Positions 3,800 to 64,000 of a stretch of 64,000 bases of DNA are shown piece by piece (position 1 is the first letter of the stretch; each line of letters opens with the position of its first letter). The notes beneath the pieces were generated by a model. It was given only the letters and a program-made list of their open reading frames with translations, ran no database searches and had not been told where the DNA came from. A program made the position numbers and the translations under genes. The DNA is taken from NCBI GenBank assembly GCA_034780895.1, contig JAUZTB010000057.1:21114443-21178442 (forward strand), written 5' to 3'. Origin of the DNA: Rhynchobatus australiae. Lineage: Eukaryota.

Positions 3800-5390
3800 T
3801 GCACAGTAAAGACAATGAGTGGTAACTAGCATTTCAGGACTTGGACACGGATTCTGCTGTGTAAGAGATTACCATTGGATTCCAATGTGATTGGAGGAAA
3901 TTGGTAATGCAAGTCAGTGTTGTGCCCCAATGAACTGAGCTGACCAACAATGCACCGATTAATGAGCCTGAGGTGCTGGTATCTGTTGTTCGAGCGGAGT
4001 GACTAAGTGGCAAATTCTGCCATCTGCACAAGTGCAACATTGACTCTAGACTCCATGATGCCTCAAGATAATAGATTCAATATGACAAAGGAAGCCTCCT
4101 GCTGACTGCTGCTTACTGCCCTCATTGGTCTGATACATCCATATTTCCTTTAAAACACAACTTAGTAAAAGCAATGATATTAGCAACGGGAAAAATTGTA
4201 ATCTGGATGGGGCACCTTAATGTCCATCGACAAGAGTGGCATGGAAACACCATTGCTGGCGAAGCTGGCTGGGAACTGAATGATATAGTTACCAGAATGG
4301 GCCTCAGTAGAAAGAGTAAGTGCGAGCACAGATTGCAGTGAGAACTTTGGTTCTGATGACATTGTGATCACATGCACAAAAACTATCTGTGCCTCTCAGC
4401 AGTCTGTTTCATTATAGCTACAATACCGGCATTTCCCTGACAAAGTGGAAGATTGCTCAGGTGTACCCTGTGCACAAAGACCAAGATGTGCCTCTGCAAT
4501 TTTCAGCTACAGGTTAAACTCTCTGGTCTGGCATCCTTGGGACCTGACTGGTGCCAGACCACAGAAACTGAACCCCAATCGTCTTCCTCTGAGCAAGAGA
4601 ACTGTTCTTTCTAAGTATAGACTTAACGGGTCACGTAAGATTTCCGGGAACTGTCGGTAACCTGAAGTTTCCGTAAGTCAAAATGGCTGTTGGCTGAGAT
4701 CACTAAAGTTGCACTGGCAGGTTAATTAGCTGCAGGTTGATGCAGATCTTGGTAATCTTGGATCTTAGCATTAGTTAATTAGAACAAATCTGTACAACAG
4801 ATTCAAAACCTGCCAGACCACATAATGCTGGACCAGAGAGATTCAACCTGAATTCACTGTATCATCAATCTTCTCTCGGCAGTGAGTCACTCACCTCTGA
4901 CACCACAATACCTTCCTACAAGGCACAAGTCTGGACTGTGATGAAGTAGCCTTCACTTGCCTCTCAATACTCCAGAAACTTTATCACACAAGGCAAAACA
5001 ACTTGATTAGTAGCTCATCCTCCACCTTGAAGCTTTCACTTTGTTGACTACTGATGGCTGTTGTGTTTACAGCAACAAGGTGTATTATCAAGTTGCCAAA
5101 ATCAACATGCTTCTTCAGCTGCACCTCCCAACTCATGACCTTGTCCACCTAGAAGAACAAGGATAGTGGGTGTATGTTAGTGTCACCAATCCCAAGTTTC
5201 ACTGCATGTAACACAGTGCTGATTTGGATATTTGTCACTATTGTGTTCACTATAGCTGGATCTCGTCACCCGTTATTAACACTATGAGATCCTATTTACC
5301 ATGAGAACTGCAATAGTTCAATACATCATTGTCACTACCTGCTAGGGCATTTGGGGAGATCAATAAATACTGGTCCTGCAAGTGTTTGAA
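3800..5390 (+). mobile_element. Heavily decayed CR1/L2-class LINE, interrupted by a MITE
   Basis: An endonuclease-like remnant (cctgctgactgctgcttactgccctc) and a 3' UTR (…gggcatttggggagatcaataaatactggtcc) related to the LINE 3' ends at 8240-8410, 30507-30680 and 59530-59790. Confidence 0.55.
4510..4850. mobile_element. Tigger/pogo-like (Tc1-mariner superfamily) MITE
   Basis: Terminal inverted repeats caggttaaactctctggtctggcat (4510) and atgctggaccagagagattcaacctg (ending 4850); TA immediately 5'; 341 bp; no ORF. Confidence 0.7.
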
Positions 5391-8239
5391 TGAGAGAGAA
5401 GAGGCTTCAGAGTCACCTGAGTAATCTTGCAACATGTTGTGAAGCTCCCTTAGTGTGTAATAAGACAATGAAAACGTTAAATATATTAATACATGACAAC
5501 TCATTTATTAAAAATCTGATTTTAGAATTTGCCTATAGTGGTTAGCATTAAAATAGTATGTTCAAACACAGTTTATTTGAAAATAAATTTCACATTCAGA
5601 ACAACACAAACTTAATTTTGGTTTTACTTTTGGCATTGTAATGGTTATTTGAAAAGAGTTTAATAAAATGCTTCATGGTTTGGATGACTGGAGCATGAGT
5701 TTGCATGTCTTTGCTGTCTTGGTCCCTGACTGTCCAGATTTGATTGGAATTTTCCATCTTTGATTAAGGTTTGTCATATCCAATTAGGCATCTTTCTGTC
5801 TGGTAATTAAGACAAGTAGGTGGAGTACAAATTTGTGTAACTAACAATGAACCAATCAGTACCACAGTCCAGTTTCTTCACAGCAACAGGACTTCTAAAG
5901 GCAAACCCAATTAACCATTAACTCCGAGACTGAAAAATAATGCAGAAAATGTGTACAGTCTAAAAAAAAATGTAAAATGAGCTTTTTAATCACTTCACAC
6001 CTGGTTTACAGTACATAACATTTGCTTCATTTGCAAGTGAAGAATTGACTATATATGTACTTTTTTAAAACTGCTTTATAATCCTCCTGTATAAGGTTTG
6101 ACTAAAGTATAGCTTAAGCTTCATTTGGCTTTCTACTGCACTCTGCCTTCTTGTACAGTCTCTAACCTTCTGATCTGTGTGGCATTCTGTCAATCAAGAC
6201 TATAATTTAACAGAGACTTTGATTAGAAAATCTATTCGACGGCACAGAGGTCCACAGATAGTAAATTTCACCAGATATAGTATAATAGTTTTTCATTCTG
6301 TCTCTGGANNNNNNNNNNNNNNNNNNNNNNNNNNNNNNNTCAGATTTGAAGCCTCAGTGCAATTTTTATTCTCTCTGTTCCCAGGGGAACATATGTAGAT
6401 GTGCAAATAGACACCAAAGTGTGCTTGTGCATAGATTCTCTGCTCTGGGCTCTAGCACCTCATTAAATATGCAGTTTAAAAACAACCATAGCTGTTGATG
6501 TGGTTTGGGTGCAGTTTAATAAAGATAACAATTAAGATCTCTTCAATCAAGTTTAAGTCCTCTTTAATGAAAATATTTTTAATTAATTTATTTCTCATCC
6601 AAAAACTAAACTCAAACGACATTTTTAGTGACACCTATTTCAAATGGATGGTTGCCCATTCACCCCCTAAAAAATCTTATAAAAGGAGAGTTCTTGTCAG
6701 AGCTAAGCTGGTCATATGGCAGCCTGTCACATGCAGGAAGATGTTGATGTATCCCACTTTCTGTTGATGTGATTTTTTGCTTTTTCTCCGTGGGTTGGTT
6801 CAACGTCAATTAGAAATTGAGTTTGATCAATATGGTGCAAAGTTAGAGTGAAAGTTAGACTTGCTGGTGGTCAGACAGTTGAAGTTTTTATTTGTTTACT
6901 CATTCATAGAATATGGATCTTGCTGGAAATGCTGATGTTTATTGTCCATCCCTTATTGTCCCTGCACTAAAAATCCATCAAGAGTCTGCCACTGTGAGTG
7001 CGTCTGGAGTTGTGTATGGGCCAGACCAGTTAAGAACGATAGATTTCCTGCCCAAAGTACCGCAGTCGGTAATTCCATGGTTACCACTGCCGAGGCGGGT
7101 GTTTTTTTTTAAATTCCAGGATTACTTATTTCTTTGACTTCAAATTCCACAGCTGCCTTGATGGGATTTGATTTCATGTTTCTGGATCTATGATCCAGAA
7201 CAGTGGCTAATCCAGTAACTTAACCACTACCCCACTGTACCCCCATGTTCTGCAAACATGTTGACATGTTGAGCACAGTTTTTTTTCCAGATCATTATAT
7301 CATACAGCTAAGGTACTGCCAAAATTACAATATTGCTGATTTCACATAATCTACCATAAAGGATTGGATCATCTGATCCACTCCTGCTTCTGAGATTTCT
7401 GACTAGTCCCAGGATCTCTGGCCAACATCTCAGCCTCTCTTGGGGTTTTGTTTTTGCCCACCCAAGGCCAGACTCCAGGCTTGCCTCTTTCTGCAGCAAA
7501 CAAAGCCAATCTTGTCCCTGGAATAGAGCAAAGAATTACTGTGTATCAAGGGATTGGAGGGGGAGAACTAAGATGAAACAGTCATTGACTCAATTTAATA
7601 CCATGATTTAAATTGTTTTTAAAGATGTATTAAAAGTGTTTATGTAAATAGGCTATTTGCCCCTAGGAATGGATATGCCTACTAACTTTTGCAAATTACT
7701 GCAAAGAATAAAAAGTAAATTTACTTTTCTGCAGTTTTATGTATCTTGTCTGCAATTCAGAGCAGTTTCTTTTAAATTATCCCACAACTTAGATAGGGCC
7801 TTAATTATAGTTTAGCTTTATTTGCTTGAAACCTGATCTCCAGGAAGTAACTGGAAACAAACAGCCCCAATAGTTTAACATGCTGTTTCACATGTTTAAC
7901 AGCATGACCTACTAGCCTTGTCACAGGAAAGAGAAGATGCTTGAAGTGACTACAGAGGACATGAATCAACTCTAAAATTGCTTTTAGTTTTGGTGTGACT
8001 TCTGGAGGGTAACTCCAGAGTCACATTCTCACCTGTTATGCACCTATCTGCATGCACAAGCTGTCCTTAACAATGTGGCCACAGCCATGCATGTACCAGG
8101 TTCAGTAAGATAAGTAGCCACCATAATTTCCCAGGGGAAAAACTGGTTGTCCTAATTGCCAGTCTTTCTATAACTGTCAGCTGATTTTTCATTTAAACCT
8201 CATTTGCCGGAAAAAAAAACTATTGCTATTTCTTTATCA

Positions 8240-8415
8240 TCACTGAATCTAAATCTGGGAACTCCCCACCCAACATGATTGCAGAAGTACTTTCACCAAA
8301 TAGACTGCGGCAGTTCAAGAAGGCACCCTGCTGCCACTGCCACAGCCTTGTAGAAATGTAGAGCTTTATAATGAATGCTCACCTTGCCACTGACACCCAC
8401 TTCCCACAAATGAAG
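8240..8415 (+). mobile_element. CR1/L2-class LINE 3' end
   Basis: gactgcggcagttcaagaaggc...aatgctcaccttgccactgacacccac is shared with copies at 30507-30680 and 59530-59790. Confidence 0.6.
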
Positions 8416-8856
8416 TTGTGCCAAAAACAACTTCAATTACTGCTGTAACTTCATCAAATTTTATTTTTGAGGCATGTTTTGTCAGCATCTGCATCTAAGA
8501 GGATCGAAAGGGTGTCTTGTGATTTGAATAATTATTTGAAAGCTATTTGCTCTACTCTAAAGATGCATTCGGGTACGCAGATAGGTAGAGTATTGAAACT
8601 TTCATTCCAGGGAGATGGATGAAATAGAAAACATCTTTTATGGGAAGGGACTAGTTATTAAAGTAACAGTTGAAAAGCTGGCTGGCATTTATGAAATAAG
8701 GATTCTTTCAAAAGCCAACCATTTTGCCTCATTCTTACTGAAGATTGACAACCTGTATTTCTCTTTTGAAATCTCTCTTTGAAACTATCTAAATATTGGT
8801 ATAATTATAATTGTCAGCTTACTCCATAAAGACCTTTTTGTAATAACTCTTTCCAG

Positions 8857-8994
8857 ACCCTGCCCCTTCTCTTGAAGTAGCTCGAAATCTGGAGGAGAAG
8901 CTGCTCCAACTCCAGCACAATGAAGCAGAGACTCAAATAGAGAAGGAGATCTTCAAGCACTGTAAGAAGCAATCTGAGCTGCTCAGCTGCGAAG
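8857..8994 (+). CDS. CUX2: CUX2 exon (~exon 5)
   Basis: ctctttccag|ac...gaag|gtaaat; 138 nt, phase 1-1. Reads (D)PAPSLEVARNLEEKLLQLQ...KKQSELLSCE, aligning with CUX2 DPVPVFEAARSLDDRLQ...ELLS. Confidence 0.88.
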
Positions 8995-9959
8995 GTAAAT
9001 GGTAAACTCCAGATGAATAGTAAATAAAATGGGTACGTGATTCTCAATGAACTGTCTGCAGGATCTGCACTTTTAAAAGTTGTGTATGGTTAAATGGTTT
9101 CTGTATTGTGAAAAGATTCTGGAGACTGATGTGCAAGTATCAGTTCATAATTTTTTTTCAATGTATTGATCATTTTCTACCGTTACTTAAATTATCAAAT
9201 GAGGCACGCCATCGTGAAAGGTCAAGTAGCTGTTTACGTGGACGGGCCTCTTCACAGCCTCGAGTGAGAGTTCAGACTAAGTGTTATAATGGATGTTCTT
9301 CTGCACTGATTACAGTGAAATCTTCTGAAGCCAGCAACTTTTCCAGGGCTCTTATATTGCCATGGGTTCAAAGGATACCATATACCATTTTCATCCAACT
9401 GTATGCCGCTGTGCCCCCAACATTGGTAGGTCAAACTTAGAGGCAAGACCGGATTCACACAAACATTGGTAGAGAATATTGGCTGACAGTCATGTTCACA
9501 CCGTCATTTCCTGGTTGGGATGTGAGAACATGTAACAGCTTGGGACCAATGAGAAGGAGTATGTAGGCTTAACCAAGCCTTGATTACCTTCATCTTATTC
9601 AGATACATTGTCAAAGTTGCAGGTGAGAGCCTGTTCAGGTTATTTACAAATTGGTGGTATACTGGGCACGTTTGGGTCTGGAAAGGGGCAACGTGACATT
9701 AGTCAACTCGTTGGATTTTTTAGAAGTTATAGAGATTTTTTATAATTTTCTGGTATTGGCCCAAATGTTACCAGAATTAAATATGACAACTTGCTTGTGG
9801 GCTTTGAATTGCAGCTCCTGGGTTGCTGGCCCAATGCTATAATGACGCATGAAACCAAGATCTTTGTCTTTCACCAAAGGCTAAAGTTCTGTTCTTTGAG
9901 GTGTAGATATTTGTTCAGTGATGCACCAGCCCATGAGCATTAAATGTCACTTTCTAAAT

Positions 9960-10530: not shown

Positions 10531-11367
10531 CAGAGATATGGGTGAGATATTTCAAAAACAAATATTCCACAAGGGTATCCTTGGCATCCATATCCTGCTA
10601 GTCATCATTATAAAAGTTCGTCATCCCCAATGGACTGCCTAGGAAGATGATGATTGGAAGGTGCTATCTTTTTAACATGATGGCCTTGATCTCCTTATTA
10701 TGACCAATCTGCTCAATGACAAATGATCTATGGAGTTTGCTTTAATGCTGAGCAGAAACGTACTTGCTCTGCGGCTCCTCTCTGCATGGAAGTTAATTCC
10801 TGTGAAGCTAGCTCTTTAGTGGTTTTCATTTTAATTAGTAATCATATTTATATGTCAATTCAAGGTAATTACTGTATCAATAAATTTATTATCATAAATG
10901 TGCTGAGCTATTAAAGCACTGATTGAACACGGATTCTACAGCTAATCAGTTATGCAGCACATAAATATTTTTAGTACAATGGAAAGATTGCATTACCTCA
11001 TTGGGATATGAACACACTAAACCAACATAACAGCCAAGTTTGTTCCCCCATGTCACCAAATGAACTGGGGTTCAAAAGCCTCTCTATTTGTAATAATATT
11101 CACAGGGGGCAGGTGTTTTGGGATAAACATAAGTTTAAATCTATTAGGGTATTGTTGCTATCTGAGGGCTATGTGTGCAATAATAATAGTGCAAAACCTT
11201 AGTCCAGCAAAAAATACCCTGATCTCCACTGGTTTCCATCTCATCAGGATTGCTAGCCTTGACTAAGTATCAAGGTATTGGATAAAACGGGCTATAGATT
11301 TGAGAATGACACCAAGCAAGATTTGTGTAGGTGTGAAGTTTAAAATACCATCCATGATCTGGTCACA

Positions 11368-11618
11368 GCAACAAACAAACTTTTGAAGGAACTCAGCAGG
11401 TAGAGCAGCATCTGTTGTGGGGGGAAGGTGGAGAGGCAGGGGAGTTTGGGGGGGGAAGGGGAGGGAATTGTCTGCATCAGAACCTGATGAGAACAATTTG
11501 ACCAAAAACATTGACAATTCCTTCCCCACCCCCCACCAGATGCTGCCCACCCTCTGAGTTTGTCCAGCAGATTGATTGTTGCTTCACATTTCAGCATCTG
11601 CAGTCTCTTGTGTTTCTG
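11368..11618. repeat. Head-to-head palindromic PLE terminal-repeat derivative
   Basis: ggaactcagcaggtagagcagcatctg ... cagatgctgcccaccctctgagttt inverted arms; tail cagcatctgcagtctcttgtgt; tgcatcag/ctgatga in the centre. Confidence 0.75.
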
Positions 11619-27460: not shown

Positions 27461-29946
27461 CACATAATTGAAAGGGTAACTAGGAATGCTTCATGATTGA
27501 ATGAATGCTGGCAATAGATGTGACACATATTCGTGATTTATTGCAGCATAATTTCATGTGACAAATCCTCTAACCATCTCAGTGGCTTGCTACATTTTTC
27601 CCCCAGTGGAAGCTAATAGTTAGTGAATCATATTTCAAATAACAAAGTAAAAACAAAAGTTGGCAAAGCATTCAGTTCAACAAGGACCTGATTAACTTCA
27701 GTGTGCTTAAAGTATTGCAGCTTTATCTACAGTCAGTGAGCTGTGAATCTGTGCTTTTGCTTCCCCCATCCCCAGCCCACCCATCAGCGTCCTTCAGAGT
27801 TAGAATGGGGGCTGGGGGGTGGCAGGGAAGGCTGGTGTGGAGTCTGAGGAGAGGCCAAGGCTCCGTGACAGTGAAGCAATGTACAAAACTACTTAGGCAG
27901 TTTTCAGCTTTTTTTTGCCCTCAGCAAATTACCTGCTCTAATTAAGGTGCTGATTGGAAATTAGTAACCAACTTTAGGATGAAATATTCTGTGTGTTATA
28001 ATTAAATGTCACTTTTTTTTAAAATAAAAGTCTACTGGGATATCTGATATAACAGAGGCCACAGGTCAGTGTTTCCTTCAGTAATCAGAAGTTAATACCA
28101 CAGTATTGCAACCCAAAACATGAATTACAGGACTGGCCAACATATTAAAAATATTTAACTGATATCATAGTCAATTAATATGGGTACGTGACAAATGTAT
28201 GAAGCCCCCACTGGTTGATGCTGTGGCCAGGCTTGACTGGAATCCTCTGCTTGTGTAGCACAGTTGGATCAGTAGGAAGGAACACCATGTTTTATAGTCT
28301 TTGTGTTTTGACTGCTGCAATATTTAGATCAGAACAAGGAGGAAAGGCGTGTAATATGTTGACCCCGCATGCCTACAAGTCATCACACTCAGGAGCATGT
28401 TTTATTTCTTGTTGCATAAGGAATCTCGTTTTTGCAGAAAGAAATTAATTGGACAGAAAACTGCAGGTGCTGGAAGCATTGCCTTAACCAGAAATACTGC
28501 CAGCGGGTGAGGCTAGTGTTGTAGGAGGACAGGGGTGGGAAGACTAGCATGGGATGAAGATGAGATCATGCATAAAATGGGAGGATTGCTTTGTAGCATA
28601 AGAAAACTGATGCAAGAACAAGAAATGGTGCATGGCAGAAAAAGAAGCAGATATTGGGGTAGATGGGGAAACTGCAAAATATGCCAGGGCATATGAACTC
28701 CATTGAAACATGACTGGATTAAAACACAGGAGTGAGAATATTTCTGTTCTTTGCTAGATTTCCATTACTGAAAATGGCTGCACTTTCACAAGGTATTAAT
28801 TTTCTCCTGCTAATGCATTTGGCAATTACTGAACAATAGAAACTGTCCAAACTTCCTGAACTAGTTTGGGTGTGGAGATTGTTCTCCTAATCCCTGAGTG
28901 ACTGGATGAGTGGAGAGATTTAATGAGCATCTATTAGCAAATGGGGCTGCAAATGCTAATGTGTGAAATTGGGCTGTAAAATAAAATATTTTAATTAACA
29001 GTTGCAGGACAACTATAAATAATACATGCATAACTGGAGTTTCCTGTTTGCAGATATTATTACAATGTTTAATTTTTAACTGTTAAAATGACCAGGAATG
29101 AGCTCTAGCTTATTGAAGTTCAGGGCACATGGATCAGACCTTCCATTGCAGAATTAACACTCCCCTCAGAATGGATAAGCAGGGTTGGTGACAGTTTCTT
29201 TCCTTAAATTCAGGCCTGTTCAAATATTTATGCTGAGTTCCCTGTCCGAAGCTTTCACAGATAGTTGTGGGTGGGAATTTTATGTCAGTAGCTCCTTAAA
29301 AATGCAAAACTGGGTAAAGTCTGAAGGATGTAAAGTCACGGGGGTAAAACTGACATGAATTTTATTACCATTGAATTTTCAGCCTTTACCATGGCATTGT
29401 GGGGATGGGAGAGGGGGTGATGAGTTCAAAGTTTCCATCAAAATCAATGTTGTTCAGTATAAAAGTGGAGGCAAAATAAATGGGCAAGTGATGGAGCATA
29501 TGTCTAGTTTGGGGCCGGCCAAATGGAGGGGTTGCTGTACGTGGTGAGTGAAGGAAAAATTGCCCAAGACACAGCTCCAGAGAGTAGGATGTCTGACAGG
29601 AGGTGCTGTCAGGTGAAGTGCTCTGTGTAATCAAAGCTTAGGGATAGAGTCAAGAGATGATGGCACTCCTGAAGGATGCTGCCAAATTCAGATTATCCAA
29701 TGGCAACATTTACTTGTAAGGTAGCACATGCCATGAAGAAAGCACTTGTTGCCAGTTTGCTATTTTCACGTAGGCTTAGATCTTTCATTGGTTGGATGTG
29801 CACCCAAAGTTCAACATGCATATTCAGTTTTGATTGGCACACCATAAACCACAGTTAAGGTTCATTCCTTCCCCCACCAGCGTGCAGTGGCTGCTCTGTA
29901 TACTGTCTACAAAATCCACTGCAGATCCTCTCTCAGGCTATTTTGA

Positions 29947-30059
29947 AAGCAACAAACACAAAATGGTGGAGGAACTCAGCAGGTCAGACAGCATGAGTTC
30001 CTCCAGCATTTTGTTTTTGTTGCTCCAGATTTCCAGCATTTGCAGTCTCTCTTGTGTCT
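29947..30059. repeat. Palindromic PLE terminal-repeat derivative
   Basis: agcaacaaacacaaaatggtggaggaactca / tgagttcctccagcattttgtttttgttgct inverted arms around a 15-nt loop. Confidence 0.8.
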
Positions 30060-30911: not shown

Positions 30912-32820
30912 TAGAACAGAACATTACAGCACAGTACAGGCCCTTCGGCCCACAATGTTGTGCCGATTCCTTAACCTACTCTAAAATCAATCTAACCATT
31001 CCCTCCCACGTACCCCACTATTTTTCTATCATCCATGTGCCTATCTAAGAATCTCTTAAAAGTCTCTAACGTATCTGCCTCTACCAGTACCTCTGGCAGT
31101 GGGTTCCACACACCCACCACTCTGTGTCAAGTAAAATTTGCCTCTGATATCAACCACCCCCCCCGCCCCGTACTTTTCTCCAATCACCTTAAAATTATGC
31201 CCCCTCGTGTTAGCCGTTTCTGCTCTGGGGAAAAAGTCTCTGACTGTCCACTTGATCTATGCCTCTTATCATCTTATACACCTCTATCGGGTCACCTCTC
31301 ATCCTCCTTTGCTCCAAAGAGAAAAGCCCTAGCTCGCTCAACCTGTCCTTATAAGACATGCTCTCCTATTCAGGCAGCATCCTGGTAAATCTCCTCTGTA
31401 CCTTTTCGAAAGCTTCCACTTCCTTCCTGTAATGAGGCGACCAGAACTGAACATTTATAAAAATCACAAAGAGCAGGGGTCCCAGAACAGATCCCTGTGA
31501 AACACCACTGGTCACCAACCTCCAGGAAGAATATGCTCCATCTACAACCACCCTCTGCCTTCTAAGGGCAAGCCAATTCCAAATCCACACAACTAAGTTT
31601 CCCTGGGGATCCCATGCCTCTTGACCATCTGAATGAGCCTATCATGGGGAACCTTATCAATCGCTTTACTAAACTCCACATGCACCACATCCACTGCTGT
31701 ACCTTCATCAATGTGCTTCATCACATCCTCAAAGAATTCAGTCAGGCTTGTGAGACGTGACCTGCCCCTCACAAAGCCATGCTGACTATCCCTAATCAGA
31801 CTATGCTTCTCCAAATACTCATAATACTCATCCTGTCCCTAACAATCTTTTCCAATAATTTGCCCTCCACTGAAGTAAGACTCACTGGTCTATAATTCCC
31901 TGGGTTATCCCTAATCCCTTTCTTGAACAAAGGAATAACATTTGTCACCCTCCAATGATCTGGTACTACTGTGGCCAGTGGGCATGCAAAGATCATCGCC
32001 AAGAACTCAGAAATCTCTTCCCTCGTTTCCTGTGGCATCCTGGGATATATCCCGTCTGGTCCTGGGGAATTATCTGTCCTCATGTTTTTCAAAAGTTCCA
32101 GCCCATCCTCCTTAACATCGACATGTTCCAGTTTATCAGCCTGTTTTACGCTGTCCTGACAAAAGTCAAGCTCTCTCTCACAGGTGAATACTGAAGCAAA
32201 GTATTCATCAAGGACCTCCCCTACCTCCTGACTCCAGGCACACGTTTCCTCCTCTTTCCCTAATTGGTCCTACCTTCACTTTAGTCATCCTCCTACTCCT
32301 CACATATGAGCAGAACACCTCGAGGTTTTCCTTAATTCTACTTGCCAATGCCTTCTTATGCCCCTTTCTAGCTCTCCTAAATCCATTCTTAAGCTCCTTC
32401 CTGGCTACCTTGTAACACTCTGGAATCCTATCTGATTGCTTCCTAAATCTTAAGTAAGCTGCTTTCTTCCTCTTCACTAGATATTGCACATCTCTTATCA
32501 GCCAGGGTTCCTTCACCCTACCATCCTTTTTCCTGCCTCAATAGGACAAACCTATCCAGAACCCCATGCAAGTGATCTCTAAACAACCTCCACATTTCCA
32601 CTGTGCATTTCCCTGAGTACATCTACTCCCAATTTACACTCCCAAGTTCCTGCCTAATAGGATCATAATTTACCCCTCCCCCAATTAAATACTTTCCCAT
32701 ACGGTCTGCTCGTATTCCTCTCCAAGGCAAAGGTAAAGATCAGGGAGTTGTGGTCTTTGTCTCTGAGAGATCTGACCCACCCACCGAGAGATCTGACACC
32801 TGATCAGGTTCATTGCTATC
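30912..32820 (-). mobile_element. Relatively young CR1 (HER1-like) LINE, 5'-truncated, frameshifted, internally deleted
   Basis: Minus ORFs contain [57 protein letters not shown] and [10 protein letters not shown]. The 3' end acagcacagtacaggcccttcggcccacaatgttgtgcc is shared with the copy at 52788. Confidence 0.92.
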
Positions 32821-34699: not shown

Positions 34700-35125
34700 G
34701 AATCCAGGTCTGGTCGTGCTTTGTTCCTGCTCATCTCCCTCCAGCATCGGTCTCCTACCTTCACACTCTCCTCCCCTCAGCTTGGTCCATCTGTTTCTAT
34801 TTCCTCACTCTCTTAGCCTCCAACTATCATTTACCTGCCACTGTCTTTCAACTCTACCCCTGCTCACCTCCCCTACCTGGCACTACCTGCCTGTCACCTC
34901 ACACCCCTCCGCCCCTCCGCAGTCCAGCAATCACATTGGTATCCCTTCTCGCCACTCCCCTTCTCTCTTTATGCTGGCCATCTCGCCTCTCAGTCCCGAT
35001 GCAGGGTCCGACCCGAAACGTTGACAGTTTCTTTCCCCCCACAGATGCTGCTCGACCTGCTGAGTTCCTCCAGCAGATTGTTTGTTGCTCCCGATTTCAG
35101 CATCTGCAGCCTCTTGTGTCTCCAG
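34700..35125 (+). mobile_element. Penelope-like element 3' UTR / terminal repeat
   Basis: Pyrimidine-rich tract, then cagtcccgatgcagggtccgacccgaaacgttgac and acagatgctgctcgacctgctgagttcctccagc...gcatctgcagcctcttgtgtctcc; homologous to 42660-43100 in reverse. Confidence 0.8.
34991..35027 (+). ncRNA. Minimal type I hammerhead-ribozyme-like motif (mutated core)
   Basis: cagtc CCGAUGC AGGGUC-C-GACCC GAAAC GUU gacag; U4 is changed to C. Confidence 0.55.
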
Positions 35126-40720: not shown

Positions 40721-41995
40721 AAAGTTCGGTTGTTGAGAATGGTCAATGCATGAAATAAATGTAGGGAATCAGCAGTAAAAGATGGAAATCCAGGAATCGT
40801 TTAAGAAACAATTAGATGCCAAAATGAGGGGCAACTGTAGGAAGCATGGATAAAATCGATTGACCTTGGTCATGTTGTTTCGGGCATAATCTTGTGGTCC
40901 AATACTGTTCTTCCATATCATCTGTTTGATGATAGATGTCAGTAGCTGGAACATGTTATCTGATATCTGTTTTTAGTTAAGTAATGTGATTTGAAACACA
41001 ATAGTAGCTTTTTCTTTAGTTGGTCTTTGAACTTTCCATGTGCTTAAGGACCTACAGCTGGTGTTCTACCTCGTATCATTGCCTTTTGTGGTGCTTGCAA
41101 GATGTTGTTCTAAAATTAAATGCTTGGTATTTTTGGACATTTTAGCCCTTTGTATCGGCACCATTGCTTTTTCAAAACATTTCCAGATTAATAAAAAACT
41201 GGCATGATCCAACTCCTCTTCTAAAAAGCAAATGCACGCAGTAGTGGCCAAGCACTTGATTGTCACAGATCCACAAAGAAATTTTAATTAGTGGCCTGTN
41301 NNNNNNNNNNNNNNNNNNNNNNNNNNNNNNNNNNNNNNNNNNNNNNNNNNNNNNNNNNNNNNNNNNNNNNNNNNNNNNNNNNNNNNNNNNNNNNNNNNNN
41401 NNNNNNNNNNNNNNNNNNNNNNNNNNNNNNNNNNNNNNNNNNNNNNNNNNNNNNNNNNNNNNNNNNNNCTAGTAACATGTTATAATTCCAGTTGGCATAG
41501 CCCTGATAACTAAAATGATTTTATTTCCAGTAAAACCACCAAAAAGTCATGCTTGCAACAATAGACTATCCTTGGGATCAATGACTGCATTTCATTCACA
41601 TCAAAGCAGCCAGTGGAATGAATGCCAAAACTGGCTTTCAATAAAGAAAGCCTTTTTCTCTGGTGCTGAATTACCTAACACAATACATGTCTGTTTGCTT
41701 TAATGATTAAATGCCTTGACTGGTGTCTCTAAACTTAACCCTGACATTCAATAAACCCACTACATTGTTTCTTTATTAATTTCACTTGTTTAAATAACAA
41801 CATTTTTCTATAAACTTGTGCATTATTAAAACAAGGCAATTATTCACCTTCACAGTAGTGAAATTAAACCTTGAAAAGCAAAGTTAGTTTAAGTTTGGAT
41901 CTGTAATTATTCCACAGTTTTCCAATGAATTCTGAAGAAGACCTTGCATAAGGTGCTGGAAAACAACGTAAAGGATTCTTTCCTTTCCTATCCAG

Positions 41996-42187
41996 GATCA
42001 AACAAATGTTTTGATGTGCACTGGTTCGAGACTGGAGGCTGCATTGGTTGCTAAAGACAGAGAGATTATCCGCCTGCTGAAAGAGATTCAACACCTGCAG
42101 ACTGCGTTCCATGATCTCCAGGAGAGTTCAGCAAATCAGATTGCAGAGTTGGAGCAGCAGCTAGCACTGAAAACTGAAGCTGTGGAG
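41996..42187 (+). CDS. CUX2: CUX2 exon (~exon 11)
   Basis: cctatccag|gat...gag|gtgatt; 192 nt; reads DQTNVLMCTGSRLEAALVAKDREIIRLLKEIQHLQ...ANQIAELEQQLALKTEAVE (coiled coil). Confidence 0.94.
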
Positions 42188-42659
42188 GTGATTGAGGAGT
42201 GGCAACCTTCATATATTCTGACACAGTTTTGCAACGTAAATGAAGTTCTTAATGGCTGGAAAATATCTGTTCTGGTGAACAGCATCACTTGCTGCTGTGA
42301 ATGATTCAGCTGATATTTTTGGTTTAAATGATTATCACCAATGTACTGTCAGGACATGCAAGTAGTTGTTAAATGTGATGGACCACTTCCTTTTAGTTCC
42401 CTCAGTGCCATTATACTGTCTCATTTGAGTCCATGAAACATACTTTGCAGTTTTTATTGTTTGTATTTTTAATACTTGAATTAATTACAAGAAAAACTTA
42501 ATCTCATGTGGTTTAATCTCGTGAGCAATTGGGATGGACTTGCTTGGCTTTCAGTCTCACATCACTGGAGGGCAAGGAGGAATATTGTGAAATTGTAGTT
42601 TTTGCTGTAAAATTGCTGCTCCTATTAAACCTATCAAAACATGGAAGTGTTTGCGATTG

Positions 42660-43300
42660 GAGACACAAGAAATTCTGCAGATGCTAGAATTTGGAGCAAT
42701 ACACAATAAGTGCTGGCGGAACTCAGCAGGTCGGGCAGCATCAATGGAGGGAAATAAACTGTCGATGTTTCAGGCCGAGACCCTTCACCAGGACTGGAAA
42801 GTAAGAGGGCAGAAGCCAGAATAAGGGTTGAGGGACATACACAGGCAGGGGATAGGCGAGTCCAGGTGAAATGGGAACGGTCGGTAGGTGGGTGGGGGCG
42901 GGGGAGAAGATGTAATAAGCTGAGAGGTGATAGGTAGAAGAGGCAAAGGGTTGAAGAAGAAGGAATCCAGTAGGAGAGGGCATTGGACCATGGAATAAAG
43001 GATAGAGGAGGGGAGGGGAGGAGATGGGCAGGTCATCAAGGCAGGGAAAGGGAGCCACAGGAATAAGGGAAGACAAAGGTGTGGGGAGGGGGTGAAAAAG
43101 AAGGGGTGGGGTTACCGGAAGTTGGAGAAATTAATGTTGAGGCCATCAGGTTGGAGACTCATGGATAGACATGTCAGTATGGGAATGGGATGTGGAATTG
43201 AAGTGGGTGGCCACCGGGAGGTCCTTGCTGTTGTGGCGGACGGAGCAAAGGTGCTAGGTGAAGCAGTCCCCCGATCTGCGTTGGGTCTCACCAATGTATG
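42660..43300 (-). mobile_element. Penelope-like element 3' end (GIY-YIG endonuclease C-terminus plus terminal repeat)
   Basis: Minus strand 43296-43112 reads IGETQRRSGDCF*HLCSVRHNSKDLPVATHFNSTSHSHTDMSIH//SLQPDGLNINFSNFR*, matching the PLE GIY-YIG C-terminus. A hammerhead-like motif lies downstream at 42759-42796. Confidence 0.88.
42759..42796 (-). ncRNA. Minimal type I hammerhead-ribozyme-like motif (mutated core)
   Basis: Reverse complement reads cagtc CUGGUGA AGGGUC-UC-GGCCU GAAAC AUC gacag: stem I, core, stem II, GAAA and NUH are present, but A6 is changed to G. Confidence 0.6.
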
Positions 43301-44209
43301 ATCATTTGTGGTAGAAATAAACCAACGTAGTAGATAGCTAGTAAGGTGGCATAGCACTGTGTCATGGGCTCATCCAGACATGGAGCACACTCTTGTAAGA
43401 GATGCTGAGAACAGACCTACTACTTCTGGGAAAGAAACCATGAAGGGCATAAAGTCAGTATAATGGAGTTCAGTACAAGACATGGATGACCTTTGTGAAA
43501 AGGGTTGATTGGTTGCATGCTGAGAGGCTATTTCCTCAGACTAGAAAGTCTGGAAGTGGTGACACATAGTTGCAGGGCAAGGACCTGGCCAGTTAGGACA
43601 TTTCTCAAAAGTTTATGAACCTTTGGAACTCTTCTCTTCCTAGAAGGCTTGTGGATGCTCTGATGTGAAGTATTTTCAAAACTAAGATTAATTTGGGTTT
43701 GTGTTGAGGCAACAAAGGAAATAGGCAAGAAAATGGAATTGCTGGGGGGCAAGGAGAGGGGGAGTATGAGTTAGTGGAAGGATGCATGTCGTTGGTGGGA
43801 TTTGCTGTCATTTCACTTTGCAGTTTGGCCAAGGGCAAGGAAGCTTAAAAACTTAATTATTTTTCTCCTCTTCTAAACCAAGGTGTCATGATTTCACAGA
43901 ATGGGAGGGAAGGCTCAGTGTCTTGTATTTATTATTTTTTCCACCCATCCACTCACCCACCCACTAACCTGCGACTCACTGAAGGGCTTAGAAAATGTTC
44001 TTTTCCCATTTCTATCGATATCATTTTTATATCCCTTTTTCTTATGTCTTGTTCAGTTGATAGTTGTAGTCAAGAGGTCACTTTACCATATTGGCCTTTC
44101 TTCCCACATTGACGCCTTTTCTTTCCTTAAACTTACAGATGTTTGCAATGTGTGTTGAATGTTAACTACTGTATAACTTGCTAACTGCTAATTCTCTCCC
44201 TTTCTTCAG

Positions 44210-44268
44210 AAGTTAGAAAAGAAATTGTGTGCACAATTAGACCACGAAGAACATAAAACCGAATCAAG
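44210..44268 (+). CDS. CUX2: CUX2 exon (~exon 12)
   Basis: tttcttcag|aag...caag|gtaagt; 59 nt; KLEKKLCAQLDHEEHKTES resembles KLEEKLQAQSDYEEIKTEL. Confidence 0.92.
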
Positions 44269-45014
44269 GTAAGTGTGTTAACATCTGTATGGTGTCCACA
44301 AAAAAACAAGAACTAAAACTGTTAAGGTTTCAAATGTCCCAAGAGAATAATATTCCATAACCTGGCCTCTAATTCAGAATGTGTGCTGTGCATTTCTCCT
44401 GAACTTTCTTCATTCCTCTCTTGTCCTTCAGTTTTATGCTATATCTCACAGCTTTCCTGACCTTTTGGATTGTGGTGGTTCAGTTTGCAAATGTTTCATT
44501 TTACTCAGCCTCTTTTGCATGCTATTACCCTGGAATNNNNNNNNNNNNNNNNNNNNNNNNNNNNNNNNNNNNNNNNNNNNNNNNNNNNNNNNNNNNNNNN
44601 NNNNNNNNNNNNNNNNNNNNNNNNNNNNNNNNNNNNNNNNNNNNNNNNNNNNNNNNNNNNNNNNNNNNNNNNNNNNNNNNNNNNNNNNNNNNNNNNNNNN
44701 NNNNNNNNNNNNNNNNNNNNNNNNNNNNNNNNNNNNNNNNNNNNNNNNNNNNNNNNNNNNNNNNNNNNNNNNNNNNTTAAAATTGGGTGAAGCGGCAGCT
44801 TTTCTGGTTGGACCAATGAACAGAAATGAAGTGAGTACCAGCTTCCTGCTGAGAGGCTGGAGGCCACCTCATTGTCCCATACATATTAAATAAGCAAACA
44901 TGCCTGATGTGACTTCTTACTGGCTTTTATCATTGCTGAGGTAACTCAGTATCTTGCAACTGGTTGTTGATATAAGTTACTATTATGTTGTGAATCCAAT
45001 TTAGTTAATAGAGG

Positions 45015-45110
45015 CAAAACCAGAAAATACCAAAAATACTCAGCAGGTCAGGTAGCATCCATGAAGAGAGAAAGAGAGTCAACGTTTTAGGTCAATGACC
45101 CTTCATCAGC
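45015..45110 (-). repeat. PLE terminal-repeat fragment with hammerhead-like motif
   Basis: Reverse complement of 45077-45109 reads CUGAUGA AGGGUC-AUU-GACCU AAAAC GUU gac (G12 changed to A). Confidence 0.65.
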
Positions 45111-45766
45111 ATTTGCAGCTTTTTGTTGCATTTGTTTAACAAAGGAGCCATTTTCCTGCTGATAGTAAATGACAAAGTTTAACTTAACACTAAAATCAAC
45201 TTGAACTGAATCATTATACCATTGGGGTTAGATAACTGGAGAAAGACTGCAGATTCTTAAGTATAGATAAACCCAATATTCTCTTCAATTTGATTTTATT
45301 TGATCCTTGTAGTTTGTGCCAATCCAATAGTCTAGAAGGTTTGGATTGGCTGGATACATTACTACAGACACCACCTGCCTTCCTGTGACTTCTGTGAACC
45401 TTGATAATAACTGTTAACCTACTCAGGGTAACGGTTAATAATCAGCAATGGCATGCTGTCTGTTGATGGATCCTCATCCTCCTAAAGGACACTGGTCCTG
45501 AAATCCAAATAGATGATGCTGTCGTCTCAAGCTTAAGCTTCTAAATTACCAACATCACTGCTAACCGTCGTGAAATAGGTTACGGAACTCGTTTGCAATA
45601 AGTTACAGATATTTGTAATGGTAAATTAATGTTGCTCATCCAATATTTAGTTTTGAACTTTGAGATGCTGCTTGAGAAAAGCTAAAAATGACCGTAAAAT
45701 TAATTGCAAAAGGTGTAGGCTCAGAACTGCAAGGACCTTGAACTTCATTGTATATTCTCTTTACAG

Positions 45767-50611: not shown

Positions 50612-50820
50612 AATCAAAAAACTGCAGATGCTGGAAATTTGAAATAGAAACAGAAAATACTGGAAACATTCAGCAGTCAGGCAGCATCTTGGGAGGAGGA
50701 ACAATTATTAATTCATGTCAAAGAGTCTTCATCAGAATTTGCCGTAAGCTGATGCAGGGTTTTTGATTTGAAACATTAACCCAGTTTCCACACTGAGTGC
50801 TTCCACCATTTTCTGCTTGT
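50612..50820. repeat. Palindromic PLE terminal-repeat derivative
   Basis: aactgcagatgctgg...cttcatcag then ctgatgcagggtttttgatttgaaacatt...ttttctgcttg. Confidence 0.7.
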
Positions 50821-52784
50821 ATTAGCAGATTGGTATGTGTACACAACCAAACGCTGCTGCCCCAGGAAGCCTTGGAGAAAAGTTGTGTTCAGTGTTGAAG
50901 CGCACAGGGCCTTCTGAAAACTTTCTCACGTGCCTTCTCCTCCTATTACCTCTTCCTCCAGAGCATGCGTATTGGTCTGGGGGGGCGTTGCACCTTGGTC
51001 GTGCTCAGATCTGTGCCCAGCCTGGCCACATCCCTCAATGGATCTTCCACTATATATGTGCAAATGCAGGGGAAGCAGATCAGAGAAGAAGCACCAGGAG
51101 AGCCAAAGATTAAGACAAAGCACAGGAAAATTAGGTTATCTTTGTATGTATAATAACAGTTAATATATAATTTTGCATTAAACTGTGCATTTGCTGATGG
51201 CACTTTGTGTTATCAGAAAAAGAACAATGTGGTAACGAGATGATTAGTGGAAGGTAAGGAGGGTGGGAGTGTTGGTGAACTTTGGACGAGGTCACCGATA
51301 CCACTACTTGAATTATTTGATTCTGTTGGGAGCAGGGAGGAAGGAGTCGTCAGTGTTGCATTCTCTCCTTTTCCCTTTTCCTCTGCTTCCTGATGTCCTT
51401 GCTGCTCATCCTTCATTGTCTCCTCTTCCTTTCATCACTTCACCCTGAATTTCTGTGATCGGAGAGCAGTAGTGAGCTCCCTTAAGCAACGATGCACCGC
51501 AGACTCTGAAATGTTGCACCTTCATCAGCTGCTTAGGTGGAGCCAGGAATCTGAAAGCTTCGCCACAGGTATCTTGACAGCCACCGGCGATGCAGACCTC
51601 GCCCGGGTTTGAGGTTGCGGTTGAGGGTATGGAGGTTGGCAGATTTCAGAGACGACATCGTCGGTGAAGCAAAGTTCAAGCAATGGCCCTTGAAAATTGA
51701 GTACAGCACAGGAACAGGCCCTTCAACCCACAATGTCTCTGCCGGCCATGATGCCAATCAAAACTAATCCCATCTGCCTGCACATGGACAATAACTCTCC
51801 ATTCCCTGTCCGTTCATGTGTTGGGGGAATTGCTCGTCAGTGATTCATTCCAGAAATGACTGCATGCTGGGAGCCTTTTCACCCCCTCCTCCTCATCCCT
51901 CCTCCAGTAGCCCCTTATTTAATCTTGTTCGATTCCAAGGCCTGCTGTATCTGGACAAGCCTTTAAACCAACAAAAAAAGTACTCTGGTATAAGTTAGAT
52001 AAGTCTGACCATTAAAAGTTGAGACACACCAAGGAAAGCTACAGAATTGCACCAGCAGCTGGGGAGAAATGATCCAGTGATCGACCAGTTAGTAGGTCAT
52101 GATCCCTTTAAATGATGCTGATATTGTGGAAAGGTAAGAAAATTTGAAGTTCAAAGGTGGCTGTATATTGTTAGACCTGCACTGGACACTGATGCAGTAA
52201 CCTCGTATTTCATTGTGACATGGAAGATGGCTGTTTAGCCTGTCACAACTAGGCTGGCTCTCAGTGCATTCTCCTGTATCCTATTTACCCACTGCCTGCT
52301 TTGCATCCTGCCTGCAGTTGTTGGGTGTATGAACGCAAACAACTGCACCAAAGTGACAGCATGCGACTGTTCCATTGGAAATGTTTGTTAGCAACTTGGA
52401 CAAAATTCTTTAACCTTTCCGGGACATACAAGTGTCTAAAAAGACGGATGCCACAAAGCGCAATTTATACTCTGACTCTAAAGATAACTATTTTCAATGT
52501 TCGTATGTCTGTTTATTTACTGTTAGTTAGGTTCTCCATTTTATATTTTCCCCCACGCAATTTTTAGCCACCACTTGGGAGAAAAGCAGAGCTCCTCTTG
52601 CCGGAACTTTCAAGGGGACCCCAATTTTTCACGTCAGGTAGACAAGTGTCCTCAGTTGGAATCAGGGTGGCTCAGTCTCAGAATACTTGTACTGGTGGAG
52701 CAGAGGTTTTAGTTGGTGAATTTTGGGTTCCTATTCACTTTGTAATTAGGCAACCAGTTAGTATCATAGAACAGTGACATAGAA

Positions 52785-54202: not shown

Positions 54203-55222
54203 GTATGTACGCAGGCTAACGTCAGCTTTCTGTTGGAATGAAACTTGGAATAATAAAGTTTGAGTGCTGCTGTGTATCAGAGCACATTGTTAAAACAGAC
54301 ATTGAGTGGTACAGCTTCACATAACAAAGTATGTCGAGGAGCTGAATACAAAAGAGATAAATAACTTAAACTAGGATGCAATTAGACCCAAAATAAAAAG
54401 AAGTGCTTGAAACACTCAGCAGGCTGGGCAGCATCTGTGGAAAGAGAGGTAACATTTCAATTTGAGACCCTTCCGTAGCAGTTATTGAGCTTGTAGATCT
54501 TAAGGAAGCTTTCAAATTAATTTATGTTGTGACATAAGGATTTAAAACTCATCTAATTTTGTGGGAGAGCTTTGAACTCTTAAAGCTGAATTCAGAACTA
54601 AGCTGGTTCCACATCAGAGCCTGCAGACATTCTGTTTTACACACACTAAGCTACAGCGACATGGACAAGTCTTGGTGGCCACATCCAATCTCAAGCAGCG
54701 TCCAGTGGACAGCTTTAGTTTAAAGACTTGAACAGATTTTTCTCCACTATGCCAATGTCCTTTAATTTCTAATATTCAATTATTATAAGTTGCATCCAGC
54801 TGCTGATCAATAACCCTCTTGTACACATGGAGTACATTACATGTCTTCTTGCATATGCATCTTGTAGTGATCCTTCACAATGACTATTCATCTGGGCACA
54901 GTTTCCAGAGCAAGTTATGTCACCAGATTATGTTTTACCAAATCATCTAAAGCATCCCAGCACCAAACAGTGGGGGGGGGGGCAGAAATAAAACAAATGA
55001 AATATTTTGAAAGTACACTTTACAAAATCATCCAGAAGCTGAAATCTTTTAAAGACATTGTTGAGTTTTAAAAAAACTAAACTTTTGAGAGACCTAATTC
55101 CAGTGCAGTGAAGGTGGTAATGAAATCAAGCCCTTGGTTCTTTTTTTTGTCTTCTAAATTACATGGATAAAGTGCAGGAAGTAGTTTTCACGCATCATGT
55201 TTGTGATTTTTCTTTTTTGCAG

Positions 55223-59790: not shown

Positions 59791-60217
59791 TAAAAATCCC
59801 CATGGGACATGGTACAAGCAAATATCCTTTGCCTATATCTCAAACTTCCACAATACAAATAAGGGCTTGATGTCTGAGAATTTTAAAAACAAAACAGATT
59901 CTAGAAATACTCAGCAAGTTGGGCAGCATCTGTGGAGAGAGAGAGACTAAATATTTCAGGCCGATGACTCCTCTTCCAGAAGTTAATGCATGTACGACAG
60001 ACTTTAATGACTGTTTGAAACCTCCAGTTTAAGACTAGATAATCCTGAGGCAATCACCATCCAGTGCTGACTGCATTCAGGGGAATCGGGACCTGCATTG
60101 GCTGTTACCCAAGAGGTACGTGTCTTTCCATCACAAACTGAATTAGAGAGCAGGAAGCTTACTTACACATCTCCCTAATACCATTATACCCAAACTAACC
60201 TCTCTGGTTAAAATCTA

Positions 60218-60480
60218 AACAGAAAATGCTGGAAACACTCAGTTCAAGTAGCTTGTGGAAGAAGAAATAGTTAACATTTCAGATCGAAAATCTTTCTTCT
60301 CTAACCTGAAAAGTTAACTTTATTTCTTTCCACAGCTGCCCAACCTGCTGAGTATTTCCAGCATTTCAGCATTTTCAACTTTAGAACATAGAATAGTACA
60401 GCACTGGAGGCCACTTGACCCACGATGTTGTGCCGATACTGATATTTCAACATTCCAGCATCTGCAGTTCTTTGATTTTT
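60218..60480. repeat. Palindromic PLE terminal-repeat derivative with a short CR1/SINE tail inserted at ~60383-60440
   Basis: aaatgctggaaacactcag...gttaacatttcag / ctgaaaagttaac...ctgagtatttccagcatt inverted arms. Confidence 0.7.
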
Positions 60481-61659: not shown

Positions 61660-62560
61660 TATGTCAGCCGTAGCACAATGACAACATCCTGACCTCAATC
61701 AGGAAATCACAGCAACAAATCCCCCTCCTAAAGTTTGAACTTCTCATGGAGGCTGCTCGGTTTGACAGAGCAGGTGCTTCACTGTTGGACTGACACCTTC
61801 CAGATCTCCTCAAAGGGGAGTGATGCACACATCCCTTTAATAAGGATATGAATGCTTTGAAGGCATAAGAGGTTTACTAGAATCCTTCCAGGATAGGGAT
61901 AAACTACATTATTCCCATTTTGAAGAAAGAAGACTTGGTAGATAACAAATACAGATTCTGCAGACCTGAAATACTTGGTATATTAGGTATCATTTGTAGA
62001 TGGAGAAACAGAGTTAACATTTCAATGCAACGATCTTGCATCATTAACCTGAACCATTAACACTGTTTCTTTTTCCACAAATGCTGCCTGACCTGCTGAG
62101 TTTTTCAAAATTTTCTGTATTATTAAAGATTTGGTGGAGGTGTTTAAAGTTGCGAAGGGTTTATATTAACTGTTGATAGAGAAGCTAGTATTAAATTGCT
62201 GAAGGGTCAACAACCAGAGGGCTCAGAGTTAACATATTCAGCAAAAGAAGCAGAGGCAGTGGAAAGTCTATTTTATGCAGCAGTTAGTTGGAATTTGAAA
62301 TGCACGGCCTGAGTGCTCTGTGGAAATAGATTCGGTAGGCTTCAAAATGGAATCTGGTATGTCCCGAAGGAGAAAACTTGTAAAGGTATGGGGAGTGGGC
62401 AAGGGAATGGGATTAACTTCAGGCTCTGAAAGGCCAAGAAAAATCACCTTCTGTACTAAACTGTTCCAGGAAGCTTCATCTGCCATCTCAAGTGGATGCA
62501 TGTGATCACACTACACTATTTAGGAAGAGTAAAGGGATTCTCAGTGTCCTGGCGAGCTTG
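61660..62560 (+). mobile_element. Decayed DeuSINE-like element split by CR1 and PLE fragments
   Basis: tRNA-like head gtcagccgtagcacaatg at 61663. A Deu-domain-like cactattttaggaagagtaaagggattctcagtgtcctggc lies at ~62515. A PLE palindrome (61950-62120) and a CR1 piece (62120-62400) lie between. Confidence 0.4.
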
Positions 62561-63297: not shown

Positions 63298-63450
63298 ATA
63301 AATGGAAGAACTCGGTGGGTCAAGCAGCATCCGTGGAGGCAAGAGGTGTACGTCAACGTTCCCTCTCAAGACCTTGCATCGATGCTGCTTCACCCGCTGA
63401 GCTCCTCCAGCGTTCTGTTTCTTCCCCCCTAGATTCCAGCATCTGCATTC
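63298..63450. repeat. Palindromic PLE terminal-repeat derivative
   Basis: ggaagaactcggtgggtcaagcagcatc...gatgctgcttcacccgctgagctcctcc inverted arms; tail agattccagcatctgca. Confidence 0.75.
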
Positions 63451-64000
63451 TCTTCTTCAACAATGATAAATGTTGTTTGCCTTTTGTACAGCTAAATGTT
63501 TAACTTTTGCACTTTGACCTTCATTTTTAAATAGTTTTGAGCAATGAGGGATCTTGTTGTTGTATTGGTGTGGGTAATTTGACAGATAACCTTATCATCA
63601 TTTAATAAATAATTTTTCAGTTGCCAAGAGATTTAATGAGCTGTTGCCTGCATCTGTGTGTGCATGTACACGGGTCTCATGCCATTGCTCTGTGCCTGAA
63701 CACACCAATCAGCAAAAGGCAAAAGATAACCAATCGCGAACATGGAAAAAGATCAGTCTGCTGCTTTCAATGCAAAGCAATGAACAAACATTCAAAATGC
63801 TCATCAATAATTAAATAGCAATTCATATCCCCCATTATACTCAGCACTTGCAGTTGCTAATATGTTTTTCAATAAAGTGAACTATAGGAAGTTACTGTGT
63901 AAGGGACTAAGTGTGTGGGGTAATCTCTTGGAGGCCCATCCAGTTCTGGGAAATGTTTATGATGAGCAGCAAGCGTGGACGTTGCAGAGCACACTGGAGT

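Follow-up and report, generated by a model that had tools for sequence, protein, structure and literature searches.

The 64,000-nt stretch of the Rhynchobatus australiae genome analyzed here (contig JAUZTB010000057.1:21,114,443-21,178,442; genome size 2.23 Gb), hereafter the window, contains many short repeats that resemble a hammerhead ribozyme. The original prediction, centered on one Penelope-like element (PLE), proposed that these repeats are minimal, dimer-dependent hammerheads in introns of CUX2 and that their sense-strand copies are damaged, either by decay or by selection against cleavage of the host pre-mRNA. The question raised by this locus is what the element is, whether its motif is a ribozyme, and what became of the copies inserted into the host gene. 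Very probably, the element is the dead, truncated 3′ end of a Neptune-type PLE whose terminal-repeat minimal type I hammerhead was intact only in past master elements, the inserted copies decaying like their flanks on either strand and deriving mostly from uncut templates.

Genomic setting

The window lies entirely within CUX2, which is encoded on the plus strand. A CUT exon is identical to human CUX2 in the Protein Data Bank (PDB) at 66 of 68 residues, and a second exon exhibits 100% identity to the CUX2 protein of Pristis pectinata and 87–92% identity to those of other rays and sharks. The exon map extends from ~158 kb upstream of the window to past its end. The element at 42656..43298 (minus strand) is located in the intron flanked by exons 41996-42199 and 44204-44266, antisense to CUX2. 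The proposed placement in CUX2 introns is thus borne out by the protein matches to human and P. pectinata and by the exon map.

Several other features of the window were recorded. The region 41972-42304 (plus strand) contains the CUX2 exon 41996-42199, which together with the exons that follow encodes the coiled-coil region. The P. pectinata CUX2 isoform X2 starts only at exon 40049; ray orthologues reach 158 kb further upstream. A weak U6 snRNA match at 14033-14130 (plus strand; 26 bits, below the gathering score) is probably a decayed U6 retrocopy. The fragments at 23513-24119 and 31366-32537 resemble a LINE reverse transcriptase and 3′ ends, which we take to be of the CR1/L2 type.

Organization of the element

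The ends of the element, 42656..43298, were set by blastn alignment to longer copies, and its identity to other genomic copies is 83–85%. It is the 5′-truncated and internally deleted 3′ end of a PLE; the reverse transcriptase (RT) is missing and no target-site duplication is evident around it. Read along the minus strand, it starts with the broken C-terminal part of a GIY-YIG endonuclease (43112..43298), which begins at the YIG half of the motif, is interrupted by a single in-frame stop, lacks ~67 nt at 43160, and terminates with the stop codon at 43114-43112. This fragment matches a better-preserved copy, L046, at 79% and 73% on the amino acid level. A pyrimidine-rich 3′ UTR or pseudo-LTR (pLTR) part (42797..43111), assigned from the sequence and the family model, connects the stop codon to the ribozyme motif; in the family model 334 nt separate the stop region from C3. 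The decayed minimal type I hammerhead motif, of subfamily A, occupies 42759..42796, with C3 at 42791 and the cut nucleotide at 42764. The tail (42656..42758) comprises a pyrimidine tract and an ATG at 42741 and finishes at a 3′ end that is fixed family-wide. The anticipated order of a GIY-YIG C-terminus followed by a terminal repeat is therefore confirmed by the match to L046 and by the mapped motif and tail. The motif carries the changes A6>G and G16.2>A, the latter replacing ACGU with ACAU so that the palindrome is gone, as well as one stem I mismatch; neither the core nor the palindrome is intact.

By comparison with PMC11167929, in the part of that paper available, the ATG at 42741 may be the start of an open reading frame (ORF). 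All three subfamily consensuses possess a pyrimidine tract, AG and ATG 23 nt past the cut site (42741, minus strand, in the window). This arrangement looks like a splice acceptor adjoining a start codon; no copy joined it to the N-terminus of the ORF.

Protein, clade and longer copies

The better-preserved copy L046 comprises the RT thumb region, the linker CNRTKCYTC and the endonuclease. Its 10 best named matches in the Atlas all belong to the GIY-YIG family or clan. It has eight longer homologues, all ray or whale-shark proteins, and the six inspected carry PLE-type RT and endonuclease sequence; PF26215 and RT motifs occur in these ray and shark relatives. Longer genomic copies align with the RT-endonuclease frame of the ray protein P0003 at 60–79% over up to 400 residues, with a PLE-type RT upstream of the endonuclease. 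A Pfam scan of six decayed translations yielded neither a GIY-YIG nor an RT match in any of the six. The CX2-5CxxC linker between RT and endonuclease that characterizes Neptune elements is present in L046 as CNRTKCYTC, and its spacing, together with the vertebrate host, points, by the criterion of Craig et al. 2021, to the Neptune rather than the Nematis clade. Three ray gene models, P0003, P0006 and P0008, consist largely of the RT-endonuclease frame of this family, and are named as isoforms of divergent protein kinase domain 1C, mucin-2 and chitinase domain protein 1; they are either annotation errors or exonized copies.

At least 150 protein matches are listed in the genome, all except the query 55–79% identical and many with stops, and because of this the family looks old. 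A strong inverted terminal repeat lies upstream in 6 of 30 long copies, a known PLE pattern, and the pLTR organization with a tail and an inverted, 5′-truncated repeat is seen in the shared 3′ end, the upstream repeats and the inverted pairs of the window. Neither a full-length nor a tandem element was found among 20 long and 30 N-terminal loci, and none of the 30 copies bearing an N-terminus reaches a same-strand ribozyme within 1.5 kb. At one locus, L061, the same strand carries two exact family A motifs (G000:C42:42405490 and 42407724) separated by 2,234 bp that include N; this pair may represent a tandem or an artefact of assembly. Head-to-tail hammerhead units, which define non-LTR retrozymes, do not occur in the window, where the copies are dispersed or inverted, and short duplications are only occasional in the loci (L004, L122). 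The locus L122 (G000:C1:50249311-50252341) is a subfamily B copy that contains the motif in two to three head-to-tail repeats spaced ~35 nt apart, a possible retrozyme-like tandem seed.

Hammerhead architecture and abundance

The majority sequence of subfamily A is CAGUC CUGAUGA A GGGU (CUCG) RCCC GAAAC GUC, followed by the cut and GACUG. It forms a 5-bp stem I, a canonical core, one extra base, a 4-bp stem II and a loop-less ACGU. The core boxes CUGANGA and GAAA...UH appear in type I order, and are canonical in the consensus of subfamilies A and C; subfamily B has C at position 9. The extra A between positions 9 and 10.1 is found in 68/69, 26/28 and 52/66 copies of the three subfamilies. ACGU is the majority or the CpG-decaying state in all three, and gives a palindromic 15.2-16.2 with no loop. 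The consensus drawn up in the original prediction fits, the family A form having 499 exact genome matches against none for the control, and the proposal of a minimal type I hammerhead with a loop-less palindromic ACGU in a PLE holds, as it matches the published minimal hammerhead (min-HHR) consensus.

A search of the window with one model detected 18 remnants, compared with none in 10 reversed or shuffled windows, and a search with three models detected 21 (10 sense and 11 antisense). A sample of 827,910 bases contained 169 remnants and its reversed counterpart none. Extrapolation genome-wide gives ~450,000–455,000 remnants when scaled from this intronic sample only, in line with the very high copy number that had been suspected. 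Intact copies are far fewer: the scan for them, using a looser intact-core pattern, returned 4,158 genome matches against 115 for the control, so that only ~1% of the remnants genome-wide match the intact-core pattern.

A chance likeness to a hammerhead in a short decayed repeat would agree with the Rfam scan of the window, in which no hammerhead match appeared at E ≤ 1, and with the best predicted folds, which are unlike the hammerhead fold. However, all the core boxes are present in order and at the place expected in a PLE terminal repeat, the 4,158 matches exceed the 115 of the control, the stems exhibit compensatory changes, and the published min-HHR consensus is matched down to the palindromic 15.2-16.2 and the additional base preceding stem II. 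Coincidence is already refuted by the counts and the covariation, and retains practically no probability.

Subfamilies and stem covariation

Covariation was assessed with 367 copies that were not chosen by the ribozyme pattern, including 29 chosen by DNA likeness to the element at 42656..43298 as well as copies beside protein matches. Of these, 163 span the motif and could be classed by the tail alone; subfamily was set from the tail only, with the test positions scored neutral. The pair 2.1-1.1 is C-G in subfamilies A and B and U-A in C. Position 2.1 is C in 81 and T in 8 copies of A and B versus 6 and 43 copies of C, and position 1.1 is G in 63 and A in 27 copies of A and B versus 12 and 43 of C. 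The change at 2.1 does not lie in a CpG and is therefore not decay, and 30 subfamily C loci chosen without the stem I letters still have AGUU...AACU as their majority. At 10.1-11.1, A and B have G-C and C has A-U or G-U, and the cut triplet differs between subfamilies, GUC versus GUU. The core is the same in the A and C consensuses, and C3, U4, G5, A6, G8, GAAA, U16.1 and ACGU are constant across all three consensuses while the tails differ at many positions. The covariation that had been looked for in stems I and II thus exists at the level of master elements, within the limit of one lineage split (A/B versus C) and two pairs. Stem I has lost its outermost (fifth) pair in C and its outer two pairs in most B copies, leaving B with three firm pairs.

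Clustering with a mixture model resolved no further clear subfamilies within C. The same clustering failed to set apart a candidate U4>A subfamily, and U4>C, considered as a trait of B, was found in only a minority of the matches listed and in 5/46 of a second set; both were rejected.

Position 9 is C in 16 of 28 B copies versus 4 of 135 A and C copies. The exact C9 pattern has 156 genome matches, compared with 9 for U at the same place, and C9 was therefore amplified from a master; a looser C9 pattern has 719 matches. A9 is near-invariant in hammerheads and pairs with G12. Nothing specific on a C9 core variant was found in the literature, the accessible part of Perreault et al. listing other core variants and not C9; C9 and the shark or ray sequences may already be in print.

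This subfamily bears on whether the motif was a working ribozyme even in the masters, or was instead kept as a fold, a promoter or a protein-binding site at the start of the RNA, cutting being dispensable as C9 would show. The status of C9 as a master trait, the three firm stem I pairs of B and the copies that begin at the front edge of the motif (see below) are all compatible with such a role, as is the report that anole catalytic mutants insert normally in vitro (PMC11167929, in the part available). Against it, the core letters and ACGU have stayed constant in three consensuses while the tails diverged, CUGAUGC-A may alternatively represent insertion of a C after G8 and before A9, an arrangement that might leave the ribozyme active, and PLE hammerheads of anole, schistosome and fungi cleave in vitro according to the accessible portions of PMC4209133 and PMC11167929. 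We regard a motif that no longer cut even in the masters as rather doubtful.

Copies in the window and decay by strand

The five copies first named all exist, with C3 at 42791 (minus), 34996 (plus), 45109 (minus), 14499 (plus) and 50749 (plus). The copy at 34974..35116 (plus) is a subfamily B member in sense orientation to CUX2 and carries U4>C together with C9 in its core. An old copy with a subfamily C tail at 14482..14592 (plus), also sense, has C at position 9 and ACAU, and an old subfamily C copy at 45011..45125 (minus), antisense, has G12>A. The region 50617..50824 holds an inverted pair of old copies, both decayed, with C3 at 50735 (minus) and 50749 (plus). Further inverted pairs consist of subfamily B remnants (11363..11610, both strands, and 63303..63453), decayed subfamily C remnants (61944..62124), tail-only remnants without a ribozyme part (29941..30050), and subfamily A remnants (15451..15613), the plus-strand member of which begins at the stem I 5′ arm. 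The remaining copies are a decayed remnant at 20315..20393 (plus), a decayed subfamily C remnant at 54392..54481 (minus), and three decayed subfamily C remnants within 59872..60366 (59979 minus, 60301 minus and 60285 plus), the one at 59979 scoring zero mismatches only because the alignment hides an insertion.

That every sense-strand copy deviates from the canonical core is correct in that none of the 10 sense remnants in the window combines a canonical core with ACGU; none of the 11 antisense remnants does so either, and the copy at 42759-42796 is itself antisense. The three named sense copies (14499, 34996 and 50749) read CUGAUGC or CCGAUGC and appear deviant because C9 is a subfamily trait; the C9 form also occurs on the antisense strand, at 11480, 62044 and 63380. 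The lack of intact sense copies among 10 is the neutral expectation, because only ~1% are intact genome-wide.

The effect of strand was examined in five gene bodies, namely CUX2, a CUX1-like gene and three same-strand clusters of LamG exons, which are unannotated and presumed to be genes. One of these, C76 (G000:C76:100.9-101.96 Mb, loci L213-L232), is the poorest in remnants, at 11 per 100 kb, and the sole gene body with a strand skew. In total, 78 remnants are sense and 91 antisense (p = 0.36), and among copies covering the motif 45 are sense and 38 antisense. Core positions are retained in 280/352 cases on the sense and 265/341 on the antisense strand (p = 0.58), and cores fully matching their own subfamily consensus number 4/32 and 3/31, respectively. 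Within subfamilies, retention of the core is 78–80%, compared with 81–82% for the non-CpG tail, and is lowest at CpG sites. Only 3 of the 169 remnants have an exact intact core, two sense and one antisense.

If intact sense copies cut the host pre-mRNA and were purged by selection, introns would be left with damaged sense cores. The absence of intact cores from the 10 sense remnants of the window fits this proposal, and one gene of the five (C76) is skewed toward antisense, 4 versus 15 (~p = 0.02, uncorrected). Xenopus retrozymes are also described, in the accessible part of bioRxiv 10.64898/2026.07.22.740005, as somewhat depleted from introns, the strand being unstated. Nonetheless, the 11 antisense remnants of the window are just as devoid of intact cores, the sampled totals (78 versus 91 overall, 45 versus 38 covering the motif) display no strand bias, core retention is equal, and the sense-strand depletion of intact cores that this proposal calls for is not seen in the sample (two sense, one antisense). 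In addition, lone minimal motifs do not cleave in vitro according to the available text of PMC4209133. Selection against pre-mRNA cleavage is therefore improbable as the cause of the damaged sense cores, and at the depth sampled the selection question is answered in the negative; with 3 of 169 intact, the copies are too few to exclude selection acting solely on the rare intact ones.

Start points of the copies and nature of the template

Family A copies have a common 3′ end ~100 nt past the cut site. Start points were determined for 50 A copies, taken without selection, whose flanks could be read; another 12 were discarded because of N or a locus edge. Of the 50, 22 start at −7 to +5 from C3 and two, each adjacent to an inverted partner, at the cut site; further upstream the start rate is 0.02–0.03 per base. 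Among 132 pooled short copies, a class that is loose for subfamily C, agreement with the consensus is near background at −8 and −7 and reaches 55–69% at −4 to −2. The sharp pile-up of starts at the front edge of the motif, at the stem I 5′ arm, and the run of ~100 nt past the cut site point to templates that were likely uncut.

The stem I 5′ arm resembles an initiator, and may be a transcription start site. An internal promoter with an initiator in the pLTR is described for the Drosophila virilis Penelope element in the part of PMC2377424 available. A splicing origin of the start point modeled on D. virilis, joining CG/GTAA at the stop codon to CAG/UC in stem I, was unsupported and was dropped. 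A splice junction is argued against because the short copies share no upstream exon. In an alignment of three contig runs to an intact copy, no GT..AG joint occurred among the 15 of 36 listed; contigs are unable to show RNA ends and are uninformative on cleavage or splicing. We tentatively propose that the hammerhead could be the first ~40 nt of the element RNA, with the stem I 5′ arm (CCAGUC, UCAGUC or CCAGUU, according to subfamily) doubling as an initiator-like start. The stumps, which number in the hundreds of thousands, would then be complete cDNAs of uncut RNA, reaching from this start to the tail, and the C9 lineage might have been amplified to tens of thousands of copies, either by means of a core variant not yet described or by spreading with no cleavage. 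This proposal is possible but less than even in likelihood.

Dimer folding and cleavage

The dependence on a dimer suggested for this motif would follow from its architecture and from papers on other species. The ACGU palindrome would permit a 4-bp helix III between two copies. In nearest-neighbor folding of an intact A copy, the double hammerhead has a predicted energy of −21.9 kcal/mol versus −35.7 kcal/mol for the best dimer, in which core G5-G8 is paired with CGUC; for the copy at 42759-42796 the double-hammerhead energy is −0.2 kcal/mol. The active dimer is thus not favored in the energy models, which fits the low activity reported for minimal motifs and the protein-assisted cleavage in anole. 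Single copies of minimal motifs exhibit no cleavage and dimers low cleavage in the accessible text of PMC4209133. In the part of PMC11167929 available, the anole PLE hammerhead is protein-assisted, its catalytic mutants insert normally in vitro, and no RNA-seq read ends at the cut site.

In the preferred account of a dead PLE 3′ end, an intact motif was likely maintained only in past master elements, where it likely folded stems I and II. Cutting after GUH would have occurred only rarely in these masters, through a two-copy ACGU helix or with the help of the element protein. Most insertions likely arose from uncut RNA, with copying initiated ~100 nt beyond the cut site and in many cases terminating at the stem I 5′ arm, and the inserted copies, 42759-42796 included, would decay at the rate of their flanks on either strand. 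This copy would not cut CUX2 pre-mRNA, because it is antisense and has lost two key letters. The family offers a cheap test set, comprising three natural masters of which one has an altered core.

Comparison with known systems

Minimal hammerheads are known in the pLTRs of metazoan PLEs, including the Neptune PLEs of fishes (Cervera and De la Pena 2014, PMC4209133), and the ray genome joins the animals whose PLEs carry them. The accessible text of that paper describes the same features that are found here: a stem I of 4–5 bp, an extra base between 9 and 10.1, a palindromic 15.2-16.2 with the helix III loop absent, location in pLTRs, mostly lone copies from truncated elements, and the presence within a genome of several consensus families, with compensatory changes. 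Unlike that description, stem II here is 4–5 bp, subfamily C has A-U or G-U for G10.1-C11.1, and subfamily B has C9. Copy numbers of 4,000–9,000 are given there for coelacanth and Xenopus; the number here is far higher only when decayed remnants are included, the 4,158 matches to the intact pattern being of the same order. The accessible text and two of the three supplementary files of PMC4209133 mention neither sharks nor rays.

The RT, the Cys linker and the C-terminal GIY-YIG domain, as well as the 5′ truncation, 5′ inverted terminal repeat, tail and pLTR hammerhead, are shared with Neptune PLEs as presented in the available part of Craig et al. 2021 (bioRxiv 10.1101/2021.04.23.441226), although here the tail measures ~90 nt from the ATG-like site. 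As in the Poseidon PLE of Anolis carolinensis (Frangieh et al. 2024, PMC11167929, in the part available), the hammerhead adjoins a likely ORF start and copies appear to derive from uncut RNA, reverse transcription beginning inside the RNA and giving rise to the tail. In contrast, the Poseidon ORF starts inside stem II and protein-assisted activity was measured, whereas here the ATG is 23 nt past the cut site and the evidence is from sequence. The diminished stem III, the PLE association and the dimer model also resemble the dimer-cleaving PLE hammerhead variants of Lunse et al. 2016/2017, as cited in the accessible text of PMC6765202. The ray copy is of an already known kind, the minimal, dimer-shaped PLE hammerheads published in 2014.
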